DNA from: Escherichia phage ECD7 | Reading direction: 5' to 3' (one strand) | Length of the DNA: 64,000 bases | Sequence record: NC_041936.1 | Part shown: positions 2,957-38,275 of the stretch, one piece after another | Layout: the number at the start of each line of letters is the position of its first letter | How positions within the stretch are numbered: position 1 is the stretch's first letter | Notes under the pieces: generated by a model | The model's database searches: none | Seen by the model: only the letters and a program-made list of their open reading frames with translations | Told to the model about the DNA's origin: nothing | Program-made: the position numbers and the translations under genes

Positions 2957-3511
2957 ATGCTCTTTTCTTTCTTCCCTGCCATTGAATACAACGGCAAGAT
3001 GATTACTGACATTGTGCGCAATTACCGCGCATATTTCAACGCAATAATTTCTGATTATAACATACAAACATATTACATTCAAGGTAGTCCACGACCGGAA
3101 CAAGTTGCATATGAAGTATACGGAAACCAACAACTTTATTGGATCTTGCTGATGCTTAATGACGTATACGATCCGTTCCATGACTGGATCACCGATCAAG
3201 AGACAGCATATGAATCAGCCGAACAACGATATGCAAATGTAGGAGGAAATCAAGTATTATACCACGTTGATATTGACGGAAACAAGTATTGGAATCTTAC
3301 CGAATATCCGAAAGGATCAAGCAATTGGTATGATAAAGGGGATATTCATCACCGTCATTTGCAGTTTCAGGGTGCATTATCGGCAGTAGACACACTGGAA
3401 GATGCGATCCTCCGTAATGAGGAACGACGCAAGATCAAGATCATAGATCCTACACAAATTAAACAATTTATTAACGCATTCATTCGAGAAATGGAAAAGG
3501 CTGATGTGTAA
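2957..3511 (+). CDS. 53: baseplate wedge protein gp53
   Basis: 184 aa, synteny immediately upstream of gene 5. Confidence 0.75.
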   Translation: MLFSFFPAIEYNGKMITDIVRNYRAYFNAIISDYNIQTYYIQGSPRPEQVAYEVYGNQQLYWILLMLNDVYDPFHDWITDQETAYESAEQRYANVGGNQVLYHVDIDGNKYWNLTEYPKGSSNWYDKGDIHHRHLQFQGALSAVDTLEDAILRNEERRKIKIIDPTQIKQFINAFIREMEKADV

Positions 3512-3522
3512 GGTGATTAATT

Positions 3523-5322
3523 ATGCTAATGTTTAATAACTCCGTTAAATGGTTTACCGGAATTGTAGAAAACAGGGAAGACCCATTAATGCTGGGGCGT
3601 GTTCAGGTTAGGATTCATGGTATACATCCCTCGCTATCCGCACACGGTGACATTCAAGGTCTTCCAACCGAAGATCTATTATGGATTACGCCAGTACAAG
3701 ATATTACAAGCGCGGCGATCTCCGGTATAGGTCAAAGCCCTACTGGTATTGTTGAAGGTTCAATGGTATTTGGTTTGGCTTTAGATGAACGCTATTTAAA
3801 CTGCGTTATTCTGGGTACTATTGCCGGACAATATACAGAGAAACCACTCACTACAGAGGGTTTTTGCGACCCTTCTGGTGCATATCCTCGTTATATTGGT
3901 AATGATGTTAATATTCTTGCTCGTGGCGGTATTAACCCAGAAACCGGACAAACAACAAAACCTGATAGTGTCTATATTCGAGATGAAAACACTGGAGTTG
4001 CAGTAAATCCAGACGACGAGCCATTAGACCAAATTCCGGTTGATGATAATCCTGATTTTACAATCGAAAAAATGCTGCGGGGCGATGAGGGATATCGCGA
4101 GAAATGGTATCTTGATTCAGAAGGATATCCGACAATAGGCATCGGGCATTTGATCATTTATAAGAAAACCAGTGATCTGGGTATTATCAATAATGAACTT
4201 TCTAAGCTGGTAGGGCGTGAAGTTACAAACGGAAGACTTACCGCCGAAGAAGTTAGTAAAGTATTTGCCGACGATATAGAAAAGACTCGTCGTGATATGC
4301 GCAAGCATCCACGAATTGCACCTGTCTATAATAAATGTAATGCCTCACGTCGTATGGCATTAGAAAATATGGCGTTTCAAATGGGTGTTGGTGGATTGGG
4401 TAAATTTAAGAATAGTCTTGCTGCGATGTTAGCGGAAGAATGGAAACAAGCCTATGATGGATTACGTCAATCTGTATGGGCTAACCAAACTCCAGGACGA
4501 TCCAGCCGTGTTTCTAAAATTATTCTGACTGGTAACTTAGAATCATATGGCGTAATTGCTCCAAAGAAAGAGGAATCAATTTCGGATGACCCGCGAGCAC
4601 GTTTGAGAAATGCCCGTATTGCTGCCTATAAGACGCAGAGAGCAGAAGAAGACCCAGAAGCACCGTTTACCCCACAAGACACACGAATCATGTTTAAAGA
4701 GCCTAAGAGTTCGTATTCTGCGAGGTATCCTTATAACCATGTTTACGAGTCAGAGAGCGGTCATATTATCGAGATTGATGATACTCCTTCTCATGAGCGT
4801 TATCACCGCAAACATCCTTCTGGTACATTTGAAGAAACCAGACCGGACGGAACGAGGGTAGAAAAGATTGAAGGCGATGATTATCTGATCGTTAAACAAG
4901 GCCGGAAAGTAAACGTTAAGGGTAATTTGCAAGTTGTTGTTGAAGGTGACGCGCAAGTTTATTATATGGGTAATGTGATGCAAACCGTTGATGGTAACGT
5001 CACGGAATTTATTCGTGGCAATGTTAATCAGACCGTTGAAGGCACTGCTAACATGCATGTTGTAGGTGATGTTACCGCTCAGCTTGACGCTAATTTGACG
5101 GCTAATGTCAAGGGTAATGCTGAATTAATGATCGAGGGTAACACTACAGAGACAATTAAAGGTAACTATGATTTAACCGTTGAGGGTAATTTTAATATGA
5201 CCGTCAATGGCACTAAATCAGATCAGGTTAATGGTGATTGGTCCCGTAATTGTGGTGCAAGCGTTAAAGATATTGCATCTGGTACAGTTAAAATTGATGG
5301 TAGCCGTATTGATCTTGGGTGA
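3523..5322 (+). CDS. 5: baseplate hub/central spike protein gp5 with lysozyme domain
   Basis: 599 aa; N-terminal OB-like region, T4-lysozyme-like segment (DEGYREKWYLDSEGYPTIGIGH), C-terminal VxGxxxxxx beta-helix repeats. Confidence 0.9.
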   Translation: MLMFNNSVKWFTGIVENREDPLMLGRVQVRIHGIHPSLSAHGDIQGLPTEDLLWITPVQDITSAAISGIGQSPTGIVEGSMVFGLALDERYLNCVILGTIAGQYTEKPLTTEGFCDPSGAYPRYIGNDVNILARGGINPETGQTTKPDSVYIRDENTGVAVNPDDEPLDQIPVDDNPDFTIEKMLRGDEGYREKWYLDSEGYPTIGIGHLIIYKKTSDLGIINNELSKLVGREVTNGRLTAEEVSKVFADDIEKTRRDMRKHPRIAPVYNKCNASRRMALENMAFQMGVGGLGKFKNSLAAMLAEEWKQAYDGLRQSVWANQTPGRSSRVSKIILTGNLESYGVIAPKKEESISDDPRARLRNARIAAYKTQRAEEDPEAPFTPQDTRIMFKEPKSSYSARYPYNHVYESESGHIIEIDDTPSHERYHRKHPSGTFEETRPDGTRVEKIEGDDYLIVKQGRKVNVKGNLQVVVEGDAQVYYMGNVMQTVDGNVTEFIRGNVNQTVEGTANMHVVGDVTAQLDANLTANVKGNAELMIEGNTTETIKGNYDLTVEGNFNMTVNGTKSDQVNGDWSRNCGASVKDIASGTVKIDGSRIDLG

Positions 5323-12529: not shown

Positions 12530-12849
12530 ATATTAAATTGCATTACACAATGAATAAAGCTAAGTTCCCAATGCAAAAGCATTACTATGGTCTACGTGCA
12601 CAAGATCCTAAACTCTATGGTACTCATTGGTTTTGTAAACATGATAACCAATGGCACACATACGAAGAAATGCACGAGATGATGAAACAGGGTATTGAAT
12701 TTAGTTATTCTAATTATGACCATCGTATAACTTGCATTCGAAAATTGAAACGATGGATTCGTAAGAATCCGCAATTTAAAAACTTTGTGTTCTTTATGTC
12801 TCATGTTTATTTGGGACATAGCGTTACCGTCACAGCAAAGGTTAAATAA
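12517..12849 (+). CDS. hypothetical His/Trp-rich protein (110 aa), second gene of insert
   Basis: ORF; stop overlaps next start (TAATG). Confidence 0.55.
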   Translation: MARVNIKLHYTMNKAKFPMQKHYYGLRAQDPKLYGTHWFCKHDNQWHTYEEMHEMMKQGIEFSYSNYDHRITCIRKLKRWIRKNPQFKNFVFFMSHVYLGHSVTVTAKVK

Positions 12850-13688
12850 TGGCACGACTTTCTAAACAAGAACAAAAATTACACGATCGGGTGATGGAGT
12901 TGATTAATTCAGATCGCCCATTGACATATGAAGAAAAAGAATTTTGCTATAATAACTATCATGGCGATGGTCTAGGCGGTTCAGGTGCATTCTTTACCCC
13001 AGAAGGGCTTGCATGGGATTTTACCATCGATGCACATTGCACAGGAAAAGTATTAGATCTTTGTGCTGGGATCGGTCGCTTATCTTTTTGTATGTTACAT
13101 CGTTGTAAGCCAGAAAAGATCGTATGCGTCGAACTCAATCCAGAATTTGCGCGGATTGGCAAGAGACTATTACCGGAGGCAGAATGGATCACCAGCGATG
13201 TATTCGAATTTGAGTCAAACGAAAAATTCGATGTGGTGATCAGCAATCCACCTTTCGGGAAAATCAATACAACCAACACAAAGGATGTATTTGAGTACAC
13301 TGGCGGCGAATTTGAATTTAAGGTTATGACATTAGGCCAGAAGTTTGCCGATGTTGGCTATTTTATTGTTCCTGTGGGTTCCGCTGGTTTTGCTTATTCC
13401 GGCAGACCTTATTATGACGGGACCATGAAGTCTAATAAATATCTAAAATGGAGCAAACAAACTGGTTTGGTGACTTATGCCGGATGTGGTATCGATACAT
13501 CAATCTATCGCGATGAATGGCACAGTACCAACGTTTTAACAGAAGTGGTTGAGGTTCGGTATTACGAGAAAGAAGCCGTAGAAGCGCCTAAATCACGCCC
13601 TAACGAACAAATAGAAGAAAGTAAGGAGATTACCTTACCGAAACAGGAAAGCGAGTCTGGGACGCTCTCAGATTTGTTTGACATTTAA
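12849..13688 (+). CDS. SAM-dependent N6-adenine DNA methyltransferase, gamma-class motif order
   Basis: Motif X-like GAFFTPEG, motif I DLCAGIG, motif IV NPPF in that order; 279 aa. Confidence 0.7.
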   Translation: MARLSKQEQKLHDRVMELINSDRPLTYEEKEFCYNNYHGDGLGGSGAFFTPEGLAWDFTIDAHCTGKVLDLCAGIGRLSFCMLHRCKPEKIVCVELNPEFARIGKRLLPEAEWITSDVFEFESNEKFDVVISNPPFGKINTTNTKDVFEYTGGEFEFKVMTLGQKFADVGYFIVPVGSAGFAYSGRPYYDGTMKSNKYLKWSKQTGLVTYAGCGIDTSIYRDEWHSTNVLTEVVEVRYYEKEAVEAPKSRPNEQIEESKEITLPKQESESGTLSDLFDI

Positions 13689-34858: not shown

Positions 34859-34943
34859 TATAAGCCATTCCTGAAAAACTCCGGTCGGGTGCAATACCCG
34901 ACTTATCATAAACCTTATGACAGTGTAAAGTGTTAATTCCAAA

Positions 34944-34972
34944 GGGAAGACTCGAAAGGGTCTTCCCTTTTT
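34944..34972 (+). terminator. rho-independent terminator after gene 23 (GAAA tetraloop)
   Basis: gggaagactc/gggtcttccc stem, GAAA loop, TTTTT. Confidence 0.7.
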
Positions 34973-34988
34973 GCGTATTATATCCCGT

Positions 34989-34996
34989 TATAAATA
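34989..34996 (+). promoter_or_regulatory. T4-type late promoter TATAAATA in 23-24 intergenic region
   Basis: Exact TATAAATA immediately after the gene 23 terminator. Confidence 0.5.
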
Positions 34997-35186
34997 GGGT
35001 TGCAAGCTATATTCTATTGGGAGCGAAAATAGATACACACAACAAAGACAGGAAGATGCAGAACATCGGGGGTCGCGAGCCTAAATCCGGTGGCTATGAT
35101 ATGTGTAATTGCTTTTGATGCTGGATTTATTAAAACACAACAAACAATTCCACCAATTTTCGTAGTAACTGCATGGCAAAGGACCA

Positions 35187-35324
35187 ATGAATGAAATGAG
35201 CGTTCATGTTGATATTGGGTCGGATAGATTTGGTAGATATACAGATCTGGTGTATGTCGACCTTGTTATGGCATTCCAGCGTGACGCTAGCGGTAATTTT
35301 TGGTTTTGGTACGCTGTTCCCTGA
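35187..35324 (+). CDS. hypothetical small protein (45 aa)
   Basis: ORF with AAAGGA SD-like sequence; below ORF-track size cutoff. Confidence 0.3.
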   Translation: MNEMSVHVDIGSDRFGRYTDLVYVDLVMAFQRDASGNFWFWYAVP

Positions 35325-35356
35325 ATTAACCCAAAATTCTCCATAAGGAGGAATGC

Positions 35357-35509
35357 ATGAGTAAGAAAGAAAACAGCTATGTTATGACTCGTAAGGAATA
35401 CAACGAATTGATGTTAGCATTAGCTTATGCAATTATTCGTTCTGATCATGCAATTAATCTGGTAAACAAAGTTAACCGTAGCGTTGATAATGTTTCTAGG
35501 AAGAAGTAA
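35357..35509 (+). CDS. hypothetical small protein (50 aa)
   Basis: ORF with strong AAGGAGG SD; below ORF-track size cutoff. Confidence 0.45.
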   Translation: MSKKENSYVMTRKEYNELMLALAYAIIRSDHAINLVNKVNRSVDNVSRKK

Positions 35510-35594
35510 GTTTATTTTGGAATCCTTCGGATTCCTTTTTCTTTTTTTGTATAAATATGATATATCCATTAAGGCAAATACAGGATTCATAAAC

Positions 35595-36836
35595 ATGACT
35601 CATATTTTTACTGAACTGTTGCGGGAATCTACTTCCTCAGTAGCTAACCAGACAGCGCGACCGCAACTATTATCATTAACTCGCGCGGTAAACAACCTGA
35701 TTTTCTCTGATCTGGTAGCAATCCAGCCAACGGATCAACCAGTATCTGCATTGTACGGCCTACGTTATCTTAATCGTGATGGTCAGATGACTTTCCGAAC
35801 TGCTGCGACCTACGGTGGCGCGGCTGGTGATCGCACAGAGATTGAAGAGTTTTCAAAAGAAAAATCTTATGACGAAGGCGCACTGTTCAAATCAGGCGAT
35901 GTTGTATACGAAGTTGTGACCGCTGGTACAGTCGGTGAAGATGCCGAAACTCCAGAATCTGCAATCTTTAAAGGCGTAATGACAAACAAAATTCGTTTCT
36001 ATAGCGATTGTGCATCGGTAGAATACTTTGAAGATAAAAACACCGAAATTTCGTCTACCTCTATGCAGTTTGATAAATGGCAGGTTAATGTAGGTTCCCG
36101 TAAACTGAAAACCTCGTTCACCACTGAATTAATGCAGGATCTTGAGGCAAGCCAAATCAACTCTGAAAACTCTGTAATTGATCTTCTGGCTACTGTTGCT
36201 TCCGAAGAGATCAACAAAGATATTATTCAGAAGTTGATCACTGTATCATCTCGCTATAAAATTAAAGGGATCACCCCTGATGGCGTACTTTCTCTCGTTA
36301 GCGTTCAGGATGCACCAACACAAGCGCGTGAACTTTACCGCTATGCTTGCGAGATGAGCAATCAAATGTTGCGGACTTCCTCCTTTGCTGGTACATACGT
36401 TTTGGCGTCTTCTCGCGTGGTTGGCCTCCTGCAATCTACCGGATGGATGGAAGAAACCGACAATGCTCTAAGCGAAGGTCGTCTACGTTGCGGTCTGGAA
36501 GTGTACGCAGACACGACAACACCTTTCGATTATATGCTCGTTGGTTGTAAGCACATGATCGGTGATATGGAGAGTGTAGGTTCTTTGTTCTACTCCCCAT
36601 ATACAGAAGCCGACGGCGCTGGCGCGTATAAGAGTGTAATTGACCCTAATAGCTTCCAGCATCATGTAGCTATTATGAATCGTTATTCACTCTCTGTCAA
36701 CCCATACACATCAAAAGTTGATCAGGAAGAACACCAGGTCATCAAGGGTGACGATTGGGGTAAAATGGCTGGACGTTCAGAAATGTCCTACATTTTAGGA
36801 ATCGAACTGCCACCGCTTGAGATTGACAACGCTTAA
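35595..36836 (+). CDS. 24: head vertex protein gp24
   Basis: Start at ATG 35595 (N-terminus ELLRESTSS... aligns with T4 gp24); gp23-like fold motifs; track start 35484 gives an unsupported N-terminal extension. Confidence 0.85.
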   Translation: MTHIFTELLRESTSSVANQTARPQLLSLTRAVNNLIFSDLVAIQPTDQPVSALYGLRYLNRDGQMTFRTAATYGGAAGDRTEIEEFSKEKSYDEGALFKSGDVVYEVVTAGTVGEDAETPESAIFKGVMTNKIRFYSDCASVEYFEDKNTEISSTSMQFDKWQVNVGSRKLKTSFTTELMQDLEASQINSENSVIDLLATVASEEINKDIIQKLITVSSRYKIKGITPDGVLSLVSVQDAPTQARELYRYACEMSNQMLRTSSFAGTYVLASSRVVGLLQSTGWMEETDNALSEGRLRCGLEVYADTTTPFDYMLVGCKHMIGDMESVGSLFYSPYTEADGAGAYKSVIDPNSFQHHVAIMNRYSLSVNPYTSKVDQEEHQVIKGDDWGKMAGRSEMSYILGIELPPLEIDNA

Positions 36837-37424
36837 CTAAATATCTAACCAAGACAAGTCAGATCCGCCCAAGATTTTTTCGACGGCGGATCTATTTTCT
36901 TGATGATATAAGTTAAAACATGGTATCCCATGTCTACGGGCAACATAAACAGCAATTCGAGTTCCTCCCGAAACGATTCCATTAACTTCTTTCGCCCAAA
37001 ATATCACACAATCTACAGGGTCATCAAGTGTCTCACCTAAGACTTGAGCAACATTTCTAGAAAACAGATTTTGCATGTATAACGGTATAGAACGAGGATT
37101 ATCATAAACGTGTTCTAATTCATCCATCGCCAGATTTTTTTGTTCTAAGGTTTGCCATGCAATCACATCATGACCGTTATGCTTGTGGTCATAAAACTTC
37201 CAATTTGGAATGAAAATTTTTCTATAATCTGGATCGTAATACTTCATGAAAGCATTGTCCATACCGTAAGCCCCTCCAGAATGCGCTACAACGCGATTTT
37301 CTGACAATACCCTCCCAATGGTACTAGCCATTATCAAAATGTCGCTAGGCGCTTTTCTAGAGCCGATTAAAGCACATCTACGAAGTGGTTTTACTCCAAA
37401 TAGATCTTGTAACTGGTCAAACAT
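36837..37424 (-). CDS. DprA/Smf-like (SLOG-type Rossmann fold) protein
   Basis: ALIGSRKAPSDIL...VVAHSGGAYGMDNAF and later GGTRIAVYVARRHGIP resemble the DprA GSR / SGxAxGxD signature; 195 aa. Confidence 0.5.
   Translation of the reverse strand: MFDQLQDLFGVKPLRRCALIGSRKAPSDILIMASTIGRVLSENRVVAHSGGAYGMDNAFMKYYDPDYRKIFIPNWKFYDHKHNGHDVIAWQTLEQKNLAMDELEHVYDNPRSIPLYMQNLFSRNVAQVLGETLDDPVDCVIFWAKEVNGIVSGGTRIAVYVARRHGIPCFNLYHQENRSAVEKILGGSDLSWLDI
36861..36899 (+). terminator. terminator-like hairpin after gene 24
   Basis: 9-bp stem agatccgcc/ggcggatct with 15-nt loop then ATTTTCTT; overlaps 3' end of convergent gene. Confidence 0.4.
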
Positions 37425-37543
37425 AATATTTCCTCCATAGAAAGCAATATCATACTACAAGTTAATAACAAATACAAGTATCCGCGTAGCGGAAGCGAGC
37501 ACAGCGAGCAATAAAACACTTCCAGTAATTGATTAATAAATGT

Positions 37544-37603
37544 TCGAAACAAATTTTTATTATTCTATAAGATAAGTCTTCGTTTTGATCATAATTTAAT
37601 CAT
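37544..37603. repeat. intergenic repeat copy B
   Basis: cgaaacaaattttt-tattattcta-aaga...tcttcgttttgatcataatttaatca shared with copies A and C. Confidence 0.7.
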
Positions 37604-37702
37604 ACATGTAAAAACTACACAAAAGGATATCGCTTCGCGAACTCCTACGGAGTATAACATTTGTGTTACAATATGTAGTGATTAATAATTAACCAAAGAT
37701 AC

Positions 37703-37752
37703 ATTTTCTATGTTCTAAAGATCTTTCTTCGTTTTGATCATAATTTAATCAA
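37703..37752. repeat. intergenic repeat copy C (24-mer at 37713..37736 identical to copy A)
   Basis: Direct sequence comparison. Confidence 0.7.
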
Positions 37753-37804
37753 ACAGTATTAATATTGTGCACATGTAAACTAAAATTATGTTAATAACAG
37801 ATAC

Positions 37805-37829
37805 AAAAAAGCCGCCCCAAAGGACGGCT
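37805..37829 (-). terminator. rho-independent terminator (minus strand)
   Basis: On minus strand GCCGUCC-UUUG-GGGCGGC followed by T6. Confidence 0.6.
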
Positions 37830-37837
37830 AATGTTAA

Positions 37838-38275
37838 TTATTTGTTGATAACGATCTGATTTCGGCGAATGGTAACATTACTCTTAGAGATGATCAGATC
37901 ATCCGGCACTACGTTAGTTTTGTATGGTTGGAAGCGAACAAGCATCTGATTGCGTTTAGACCCTTCCTTAATCTTGATTTCCATCTGGATATTGTTGCCT
38001 ACGTGAGCAACCGCAATTTCACCTTTATTCTCATAGACCCACTTGCTGGTAACGTCTCCAGCAAAAGCCTTAATAACTTGCAATGCTTCGTCGTATGCGG
38101 TAGAGCTGTGAACTTTCAGAAGGCCAGCCGTAGCAAGACGTGAGCAGGTGATCGCCGGAGATTGCCAAACATCAACATTAATTTGCTCAATCAGAGTAAC
38201 ACCGCCCTGATCAACTGCTTTGAATGCTTCGAACATTGCCTTTTTCATTGCTACGTGGTTTTTACGGAATTTCAT
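37838..38275 (-). CDS. hypothetical protein (145 aa)
   Basis: ORF followed by terminator. Confidence 0.55.
   Translation of the reverse strand: MKFRKNHVAMKKAMFEAFKAVDQGGVTLIEQINVDVWQSPAITCSRLATAGLLKVHSSTAYDEALQVIKAFAGDVTSKWVYENKGEIAVAHVGNNIQMEIKIKEGSKRNQMLVRFQPYKTNVVPDDLIISKSNVTIRRNQIVINK

Follow-up and report, generated by a model that had tools for sequence, protein, structure and literature searches.

At positions 36837-37424 of the stretch of DNA analysed here (64,000 nucleotides of Escherichia phage ECD7, NC_041936.1; hereafter the window) lies a gene on the minus strand whose product resembles bacterial DprA/Smf, and it is this DprA-like protein that we consider here. The source phage is a Krischvirus, a T4-like coliphage of the RB49/GEC-3S type; between positions 35000 and 39000 its sequence is 99.3% identical to that of GEC-3S and 98.4-98.5% identical to that of RB49. 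As the initial annotation of the sequence had described, an open reading frame (ORF) of 195 amino acids (aa) runs convergently with gene 24, and we find the stop codons of the two genes directly abutting. The gene, its convergent neighbour and the segments of the protein discussed below are as follows (HpDprA, the DprA of H. pylori, is numbered as in its crystal structure with single-stranded DNA, ssDNA; pLDDT, predicted local distance difference test).

36837..37424, minus strand: DprA-like coding sequence (SLOG, PHROG 768), 195 aa, ATG start, stop codon TAG at 36837-36839

35595..36836, plus strand: gene 24 (gp24, head vertex protein), the convergent neighbour, stop codon TAA at 36834-36836

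37356..37364, minus strand: motif 1, G21-S22-R23 (G-S/T/A-R), in the loop after the first strand; HpDprA G50-R52

37257..37280, minus strand: glycine-rich loop S49-G-G-A-Y-G-M-D56 (the SGxAxGxD common to DprA), aligned with SGGALGVD of HpDprA

37053..37067, minus strand: motif 2, L120-F-S-R123-N124 (F/L/Y-x-x-R-N/D), in the pocket helix; HpDprA F140-N144

36960..36968, minus strand: invariant loop G153-G154-T155, equivalent of the G-S loop of DprA (HpDprA G164)

36840..36860, minus strand: C-terminal tail D189-L-S-W-L-D-I195, a putative gp45-binding peptide on a flexible linker, proposed from resemblance and pLDDT

The DprA-like ORF is a working gene under purifying selection. A GGAGG ribosome-binding site (37432-37436) is located 8 nt upstream of its start codon, and the gene is kept in all 57 Krischvirus records with at least 95% amino acid identity (tblastn against phage records). 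The ratio of nonsynonymous to synonymous substitution rates is 0.12 when the gene is compared with an 87%-identical metagenomic relative and 0.02 when it is compared with a 99%-identical one. No paralog of the protein was found in the genome.

The protein matches the PHROG 768 profile ("DprA-like DNA recombination-mediator protein") with E=1.2e-60, its residues 15-187 aligning with positions 4-181 of 191, and the DprA-like Rossmann identity that had been proposed from the letters alone is thus borne out by a profile search. The identification as DprA-like is not new, since RefSeq already uses that name for the same gene in GEC-3S, RB49 and Phi1. The AlphaFold model of the protein (pLDDT 95.7), along with its secondary structure, describes one domain devoid of the N-terminal SAM domain and of the C-terminal winged helix, neither of which is universal among DprA proteins (PMC3950713). 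Comparison with known structures gave figures of 13.2 for DprA 3maj, 12.7 for DprA 4ljk, 11.9 for the Moco carrier protein, 11.8 for TM1055, 11.3 for ShosA, 11.2 for YpsA, about 9-11 for LOG enzymes and 9.7 for the SLOG domain of ThsA. Judged from the model, the protein belongs to the SLOG superfamily (three-layer alpha/beta Rossmann-like fold, SMF/DprA-LOG), with DprA as its nearest relative by a margin that is not wide. Among the viral structures of BFVD (Foldseek), template modelling (TM) scores of 0.7-0.8 were reached within its own family and 0.41-0.46 with the YspA/DUF2493 viral SLOGs; because of this difference (about 0.43 versus 0.7-0.8) we regard the DprA-like family as a clade separate from the latter. 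No Pfam match to the YspA-type family (PF10686) or to other SLOG families was found for the protein, which also differs from the other SLOG clades (LOG, YpsA, YspA/DUF2493, ThsA SLOG and Moco carrier protein) in lacking PGGxGTxxE. The family is large: among 1.84 billion cluster representatives, a profile search identified 4,319 relatives (2,731 at E<=1e-10), mostly free-standing proteins of 170-200 aa among the 150 best-scoring relatives listed, and tblastn found it in 1,433 of 50,697 phage records, chiefly those of large virulent phages, whose main hosts are Klebsiella, Pseudomonas, Escherichia, Vibrio, Aeromonas and Acinetobacter.

The crystal study of HpDprA bound to ssDNA defined two ssDNA-binding signatures, G-S/T/A-R and F/L/Y-x-x-R-N/D, and contrasted them with the P-G-G-x-G-T-x-x-E of LOG proteins (PMC3950713); mutation of the two motif arginines abolishes ssDNA binding in HpDprA (PMC3950713) as well as in ShosA, the antitoxin of ShosTA (PMC12961424). 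The GSR...SGGAxGMD signature that the initial annotation had pointed out is indeed present, as G21-S22-R23 and S49-G-G-A-Y-G-M-D56. R23 corresponds to R52 of HpDprA, which gates the pocket for the ssDNA base, and to R139 of ShosA; among 134 family representatives, motif 1 is matched in 128 and R23 in 132, while in the glycine-rich loop G50 and D56 are invariant and S49, A52 and G54 are each conserved in at least 96%. Motif 2 is found in strict form in 119 of the 134 (R123 in all of them, N124 in 129), in an order collinear with F208-R211-N212 of E. coli Smf; in HpDprA, F140, R143 and N144 orient and stack the inserted base (PMC3950713). The G153-G154-T155 loop is not the LOG motif PGGxGTxxE, because no glutamate follows (the sequence reads S-G-G-T-R-I-A-V-Y), and the LOG catalytic motif (PF03641) occurs in 0/134 family members. 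The phage protein thus resembles bacterial DprA/Smf (PF02481; 3maj, 4ljk/4ljr, 3uqz) in five motifs collinear with E. coli Smf (GSR, SGxAxGxD, P, [FL]xxRN and G-[GS]-[ST]), including both motifs that hold the ssDNA base in HpDprA. Unlike bacterial DprA/Smf, it is a single-domain protein of 195 aa with approximately 16 and 9 extra residues between motifs, remains under the Pfam and TIGRFAM cut-offs, carries a tail of the clamp-binding type, and is encoded by a virulent phage with UvsX and not within a competence regulon.

T4 gp43, gp33 and gp55 end in hydrophobic-acidic motifs that bind the gp45 clamp and are interchangeable (PMC2988020). Like these T4-type tails, that of the DprA-like protein is a hydrophobic-acidic peptide placed at the extreme C-terminus after a flexible linker; pLDDT drops to 80, and then to 58, over the last 10-15 residues or so (...GGSDLSWLDI). 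Moreover, the protein shares the ending ...[LF]-D-I with gp43 and gp33 of the same phage, and this ending changes in parallel with that of gp43 from genus to genus. In Krischvirus (GEC-3S), gp43 ends in ...SLTDLFDI, gp33 in ...TNTLDI, gp55 in ...SLDQFYEIEN and the DprA-like protein in ...DLSWLDI; in Jiaodavirus (PP209575), the respective tails are ...SLLDMFDF, ...NSLDFLL, ...NLEFLYEAED and ...GFDIFSL. Phages of the Slopekvirus/RB16 type combine ...LFGDW or ...LFGDDW in gp43 with ...TLDFLW(C) in the DprA-like protein, those of the Marfavirus type ...MFDF with ...FDIFAL/SL, and at the loci with the T4-type gp43 tail (...KASLDFLFG) no DprA-like homolog was found. The last residue follows the gp43 tail in two groups, being I in Krischvirus and W in the Slopekvirus/RB16 type. 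In the whole RB49 genome, a hydrophobic residue followed by D-I ends 4 of the 925 ORFs of at least 40 aa, and the four proteins are gp43, gp33, the DprA-like protein and a DNA-methyltransferase-like protein. Outside the T4-like subfamily, tails of this kind are largely missing from the homologs, as judged by eye. Compared at the level of sequence, the tail of the DprA-like protein covaries with that of gp43 across T4-like genera, and the sequences give good evidence that members of the T4-like subfamily dock on the gp45 clamp via this tail.

The methyltransferase-like protein among these four is encoded in the window as well. This 279-aa S-adenosylmethionine-dependent methyltransferase (12849-13688, plus strand) (NPPF motif; Pfam matches to MTS, Eco57I and N6_Mtase) possesses a long acidic linker and the tail ...SGTLSDLFDI, nearly identical to ...SLTDLFDI of the DNA polymerase, and may be a clamp-tethered DNA methyltransferase.

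Given the pocket residues, along with the tail, we propose that the DprA-like protein is a DprA-type binder of single-stranded nucleic acid, tethered to gp45 and accessory to sealing, repair or recombination enzymes at clamp-loaded sites; we give this reading a probability of about 0.5. Nucleic-acid binding is what we infer from the computed fold and motif conservation, and clamp binding from the computed tail similarity and covariation. We also count in favour of this reading the linkage to rnlB and other DNA-related contexts of the family described below, namely the fusions to RecJ, NADAR and Macro, a split NAD-dependent DNA ligase next door, and homologs carried by plasmids. Most likely, single-stranded nucleic acid would be bound in the fashion of DprA, with one base inserted in a small basic pocket that would have R23 as its gate, L120/R123/N124 as its lining and the G153-G154-T155 loop as its lid. 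The protein would probably be held on DNA by gp45 through its hydrophobic-acidic C-terminus, and such a tether would locate it at primer ends, nicks and gaps; at these clamp-loaded sites, ssDNA might be protected or handed over to the enzymes of sealing, repair or recombination. Of the two functions suggested initially, recombination and the sensing of nucleotide signals, a role on DNA is favoured by the DprA ssDNA pocket residues and the clamp-type tail, while sensing is weakened.

Several points weigh against this proposal. Sequence similarity to bacterial DprA is restricted to the first 50 residues or so: the Pfam DprA profile (PF02481) reaches 22.3 bits, short of its cut-off of 29.6, and only over residues 15-60, and the TIGR00732 equivalog scores 14.4 bits against a cut-off of 191. 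An attempt at sequence-level proof of full-length DprA homology failed, as hhalign against E. coli Smf aligned 51 columns with a probability of 22.7% and the alignment in the PDB profile search spans residues 5-69 only. The third arginine of HpDprA and ShosA (R170/R261) aligns with Y160, and the isoelectric point of the protein is mildly acidic (6.4, versus a family median of 8.5). The acidic position of the tail varies in the closest relatives (...MFGI, ...LGI), and the case for clamp binding is one of sequence resemblance only. The gp45 partners listed in one T4 review include no DprA-like protein. In the literature searched, we found no experiments on any member of the family. Finally, Iyer and colleagues took the fusions to NADAR, Macro and DUF4326 to speak for the processing of ADP-ribose derivatives by viral SLOGs, rather than for DNA binding (PMC9503650). 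Elsewhere they suggested that phage copies of DprA serve as extra ssDNA binders.

The initial annotation also held that the DprA-like gene stands here rather than RNA ligase 2, the product of rnlB. We take it that T4 carries rnlB and segD at the corresponding positions and has no DprA-like homolog. The claim stands insofar as rnlB is missing: neither the gene nor its remnants were found in the window or in the whole genome of the Krischvirus RB49 (tblastn with three Rnl2 proteins), and Krischvirus retains rnlA and pseT. The DprA-like gene is no substitute, though; in other T4-like phages it is instead the usual downstream neighbour of rnlB. In Marfavirus EI and Gelderlandvirus Melville, hoc is followed further on by rnlB and then by the DprA-like gene in the same direction, with gene 24 converging on the pair, and in Slopekvirus KP27 the pair is located elsewhere, between srd and nampt, so that the linkage persists even away from gene 24. 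Neighbourhoods were sampled in 80 IMG/VR loci, which form 54 groups after dereplication at 80% identity and lean to T4-like relatives because they were picked with a single peptide pattern. In 14 of the 54 groups, all 14 of them T4-like, the DprA-like gene has rnlB upstream of it on the same strand (gene calling in these loci was simple, with at least one error, and rnlB in one locus, L015, was established by tblastn). At 8 of the 9 directly adjacent junctions examined, in IMG/VR loci and phage EI, the rnlB stop codon overlaps the DprA-like start codon (TAATG or ATGA...TAA), and these overlaps suggest translational coupling. The simplest history is that of an ancestral pair of rnlB and the DprA-like gene beside gene 24, from which the Krischvirus lineage lost rnlB and the T4 lineage lost the DprA-like gene. 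In KP27, the pair of rnlB and the DprA-like gene, which usually overlaps, is split by a homing endonuclease gene (3469-3987) that sits exactly between its two members.

Pairing with a ligase is not confined to rnlB. Outside T4-like phages, a second ligase pairing, independent of the first, occurs in three IMG/VR contigs of 104-122 kb (L068, L070 and L081): directly downstream of the DprA-like gene, one ORF encodes the adenylation and OB domains of a split NAD-dependent DNA ligase and the next its Zn-HhH-BRCT part. Other neighbours outside T4-like phages are ribonucleotide reductase, a primase-helicase, DNA polymerase and, in 8 groups, a PhoH-like ATPase, whose gene is directly upstream of the DprA-like gene at about half of the loci concerned. 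In two Aeh1-like contigs resembling Aeromonas phages (L024 and L041), the DprA-like gene is separated from gene 24 by a gene for a 112-aa RyR-domain protein.

In T4-like relatives, the DprA-like protein would be co-expressed with Rnl2, and since Krischvirus has lost rnlB, it must work there without Rnl2. Starting from the computed linkage, one may imagine a partnership in which the DprA-like protein would act as a clamp-tethered adaptor that brings Rnl2 to RNA 3' ends on DNA (primers, ribonucleotide nicks or R-loops at forks), and in which its fused forms would target NADAR, Macro and RecJ to damaged ssDNA; we hold this more specific version doubtful. We found no paper linking Rnl2 with DprA in the literature searched and, to our knowledge, the cellular substrate of T4-type Rnl2 has been unknown since 2002.

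The fusions bear on another explanation, namely that the protein takes part in counter-defence as a binder or hydrolase of nucleotide derivatives, its SLOG pocket binding or cleaving signals or toxins derived from ADP-ribose, such as the cyclic ADP-ribose isomers of the Thoeris type. Such a function was predicted for viral SLOG domains by Iyer, Burroughs and Aravind (PMC9503650), and it would accord with the fusions of the family to NADAR (5 of the 10 long family proteins examined), to DUF4326 and, on plasmids, to Macro, with the existence of giant multi-SLOG proteins, and with the occurrence of homologs among the accessory genes of conjugative plasmids (homologs were found on 23 plasmids, 12 of them typed as conjugative). 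A fusion to RecJ was found as well. Relatives fused to NADAR or Macro recall the phage NADAR (AdfN, T4 gp30.3) and DarG-type Macro enzymes; the DprA-like protein itself differs from these in having no NADAR or Macro domain and in not being encoded adjacent to one. Neither NADAR nor DUF4326 is a regular neighbour of the family, since only 2 of the 80 loci encode NADAR within 5 kb and no locus encodes DUF4326 there. The substrate of DarG-type Macro enzymes is ADP-ribosylated DNA. NADAR enzymes act on it too (PMC11825919), and the phage NADAR (T4 gp30.3, AdfN) was shown experimentally to counter DarT1 of DarTG1, which ADP-ribosylates DNA (PMC11825919). Because of this shared substrate, the NADAR and Macro fusions fit a DNA-binding module equally well. 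Against the processing of nucleotide derivatives stand the missing LOG catalytic motif (134 of 134 members), the fact that the conserved residues are exactly the ssDNA-binding motifs of DprA, the structural distance from the YspA/DUF2493 viral SLOGs, and the clamp-binding tail, which would make little sense on an enzyme for soluble nucleotides. Hence, we consider this explanation unlikely.

Some members of these contexts deserve separate mention. Two giant proteins, one of 1475 aa (P0017) and one of 1488 aa (P0019), join a domain of this SLOG family to SLOG domains of the YAcAr and LDcluster4 types and to a NADAR at the C-terminus, and are reminiscent of the polyvalent proteins that serve phages and conjugative elements in counter-defence. 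On two large plasmids, one conjugative from Novosphingobium (L090) and one non-mobilizable from Erythrobacter (L091), homologs are found among accessory genes, with neighbours encoding an SOS-response-associated peptidase, DUF736, ImmA/IrrE, SocA and RNase H, and one homolog carries a C-terminal Macro fusion. Krischvirus has a NADAR of the gp30.3 family of its own, encoded just past the end of the window (L006, 39996-40475, minus strand; PF08010, E=1.8e-38); its GEC-3S counterpart, BN201_0216, is still annotated as hypothetical.

A classical recombination mediator, which would load UvsX or host RecA onto ssDNA covered by single-stranded DNA-binding protein for recombination-dependent replication, is a narrower version of the clamp-tethered ssDNA binder proposed above. 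The DprA-type fold and ssDNA motifs would suit it, both DprA and ShosA bind RecA, the phage relies on UvsX, and the clamp tether would position the protein at 3' ends. However, nothing speaks specifically in its favour: compared with three-domain DprAs, the protein has neither a SAM nor a C-terminal domain, and it scores below the TIGR00732 cut-off, the conserved partner gene encodes an RNA ligase and not a recombinase, and T4-type phages already possess UvsY as a dedicated mediator of UvsX. We therefore find a mediator improbable.

Very unlikely, finally, is an antitoxin mimic, that is, a free-standing ShosA/PsyrA-like copy keeping abortive-infection systems of the ShosTA/PsyrTA type silent, since, even though ShosA requires ssDNA binding to neutralise ShosT (PMC12961424) and PADLOC gave weak matches to PsyrA (E=4e-5) and ShosA (E=3.5e-4), these span only residues 15-61, the generic GSR...GGAxGxD region, the similarity to ShosA (PDB 8zva) covers about 45 residues, the phage protein has neither the SAM domain nor the helix alpha14 that ShosA needs for stability and dimerisation, its gene is flanked by gene 24 and an ORFan with no toxin gene beside it, and no link of the family to phosphoribosyltransferase (PRTase) toxins such as the one neighbouring ShosA appeared in the 80 phage loci.

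The surroundings of the DprA-like gene contain the following further features.

37425..37809, minus strand: untranslated leader of 385 nt upstream of the DprA-like gene, including the GGAGG at 37432-37436

37838-38275, minus strand: ORFan of 145 aa (PHROG 15652, no Pfam match), in the slot occupied by rnlB in relatives

35187-35324, plus strand: small ORF of 45 aa in the interval between genes 23 and 24, matching only a PHROG of unknown function

35357-35509, plus strand: small ORF of 50 aa in the same interval, likewise matching only a PHROG of unknown function

The leader holds a 25-nt exact direct repeat (GATTAAATTATGATCAAAACGAAGA) at 37577-37601 and 37726-37750 on the minus strand, the copies being 149 nt apart, where none would be expected by chance. 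A structured RNA was sought in the leader and rejected, the Rfam match to Ysr49 being at chance level (23.9 bits versus 95, E=0.13). No clear promoter for the DprA-like gene was found, as the matches from a sigma-70 scan were all weak (9/12) and fell within the ORF, and the minus strand has no late promoter motif. The ORFan is flanked by a consensus sigma-70 promoter (38377-38350; perfect TTGACA-16-TATAAT with TG) and a GC-rich terminator (37829-37810), an arrangement like that of the PeSL cassettes, by which ORFans are known to be shuffled in RB49 and phi1 (PMC2839356). Between genes 23 and 24 there is no homing endonuclease, as the initial annotation had noted. The interval contains just the ORFs of 45 and 50 aa and a third of about 33 aa (32-34) annotated in GEC-3S, and no Pfam match to a nuclease domain or its remnant was obtained for these three small ORFs even at E<=1. 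A late-promoter motif (TATAAATA) is located at 34989, ahead of the three tiny ORFs, and a second one (TATAAATA) at 35550, before gene 24, while terminators are annotated in GEC-3S at about 34944-34967 and 35520-35536; from the first motif to the second, by way of the tiny ORFs and the latter terminator, the interval (34859-35594, plus strand) looks like a small late unit.

In the literature searched, we did not find described the pairing of the DprA-like gene with rnlB, its survival in Krischvirus without rnlB or the covarying clamp-type tail, nor a reading of the NADAR, Macro and RecJ fusions as ssDNA targeting. The family concerned is a large one (1,433 of 50,697 phage records and 4,319 cluster representatives) for which no experimental work was found. 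Its DprA-type ssDNA pocket, together with the clamp-type tail, argues against the published view of viral SLOGs as processors of soluble molecules derived from ADP-ribose, and the tight operon with rnlB suggests a partner for Rnl2. If the protein does act as an adaptor for Rnl2, this would provide the first physiological context for the T4-type enzyme, and the family would represent a ssDNA-targeting module of general use to phages and plasmids in counter-defence and repair.

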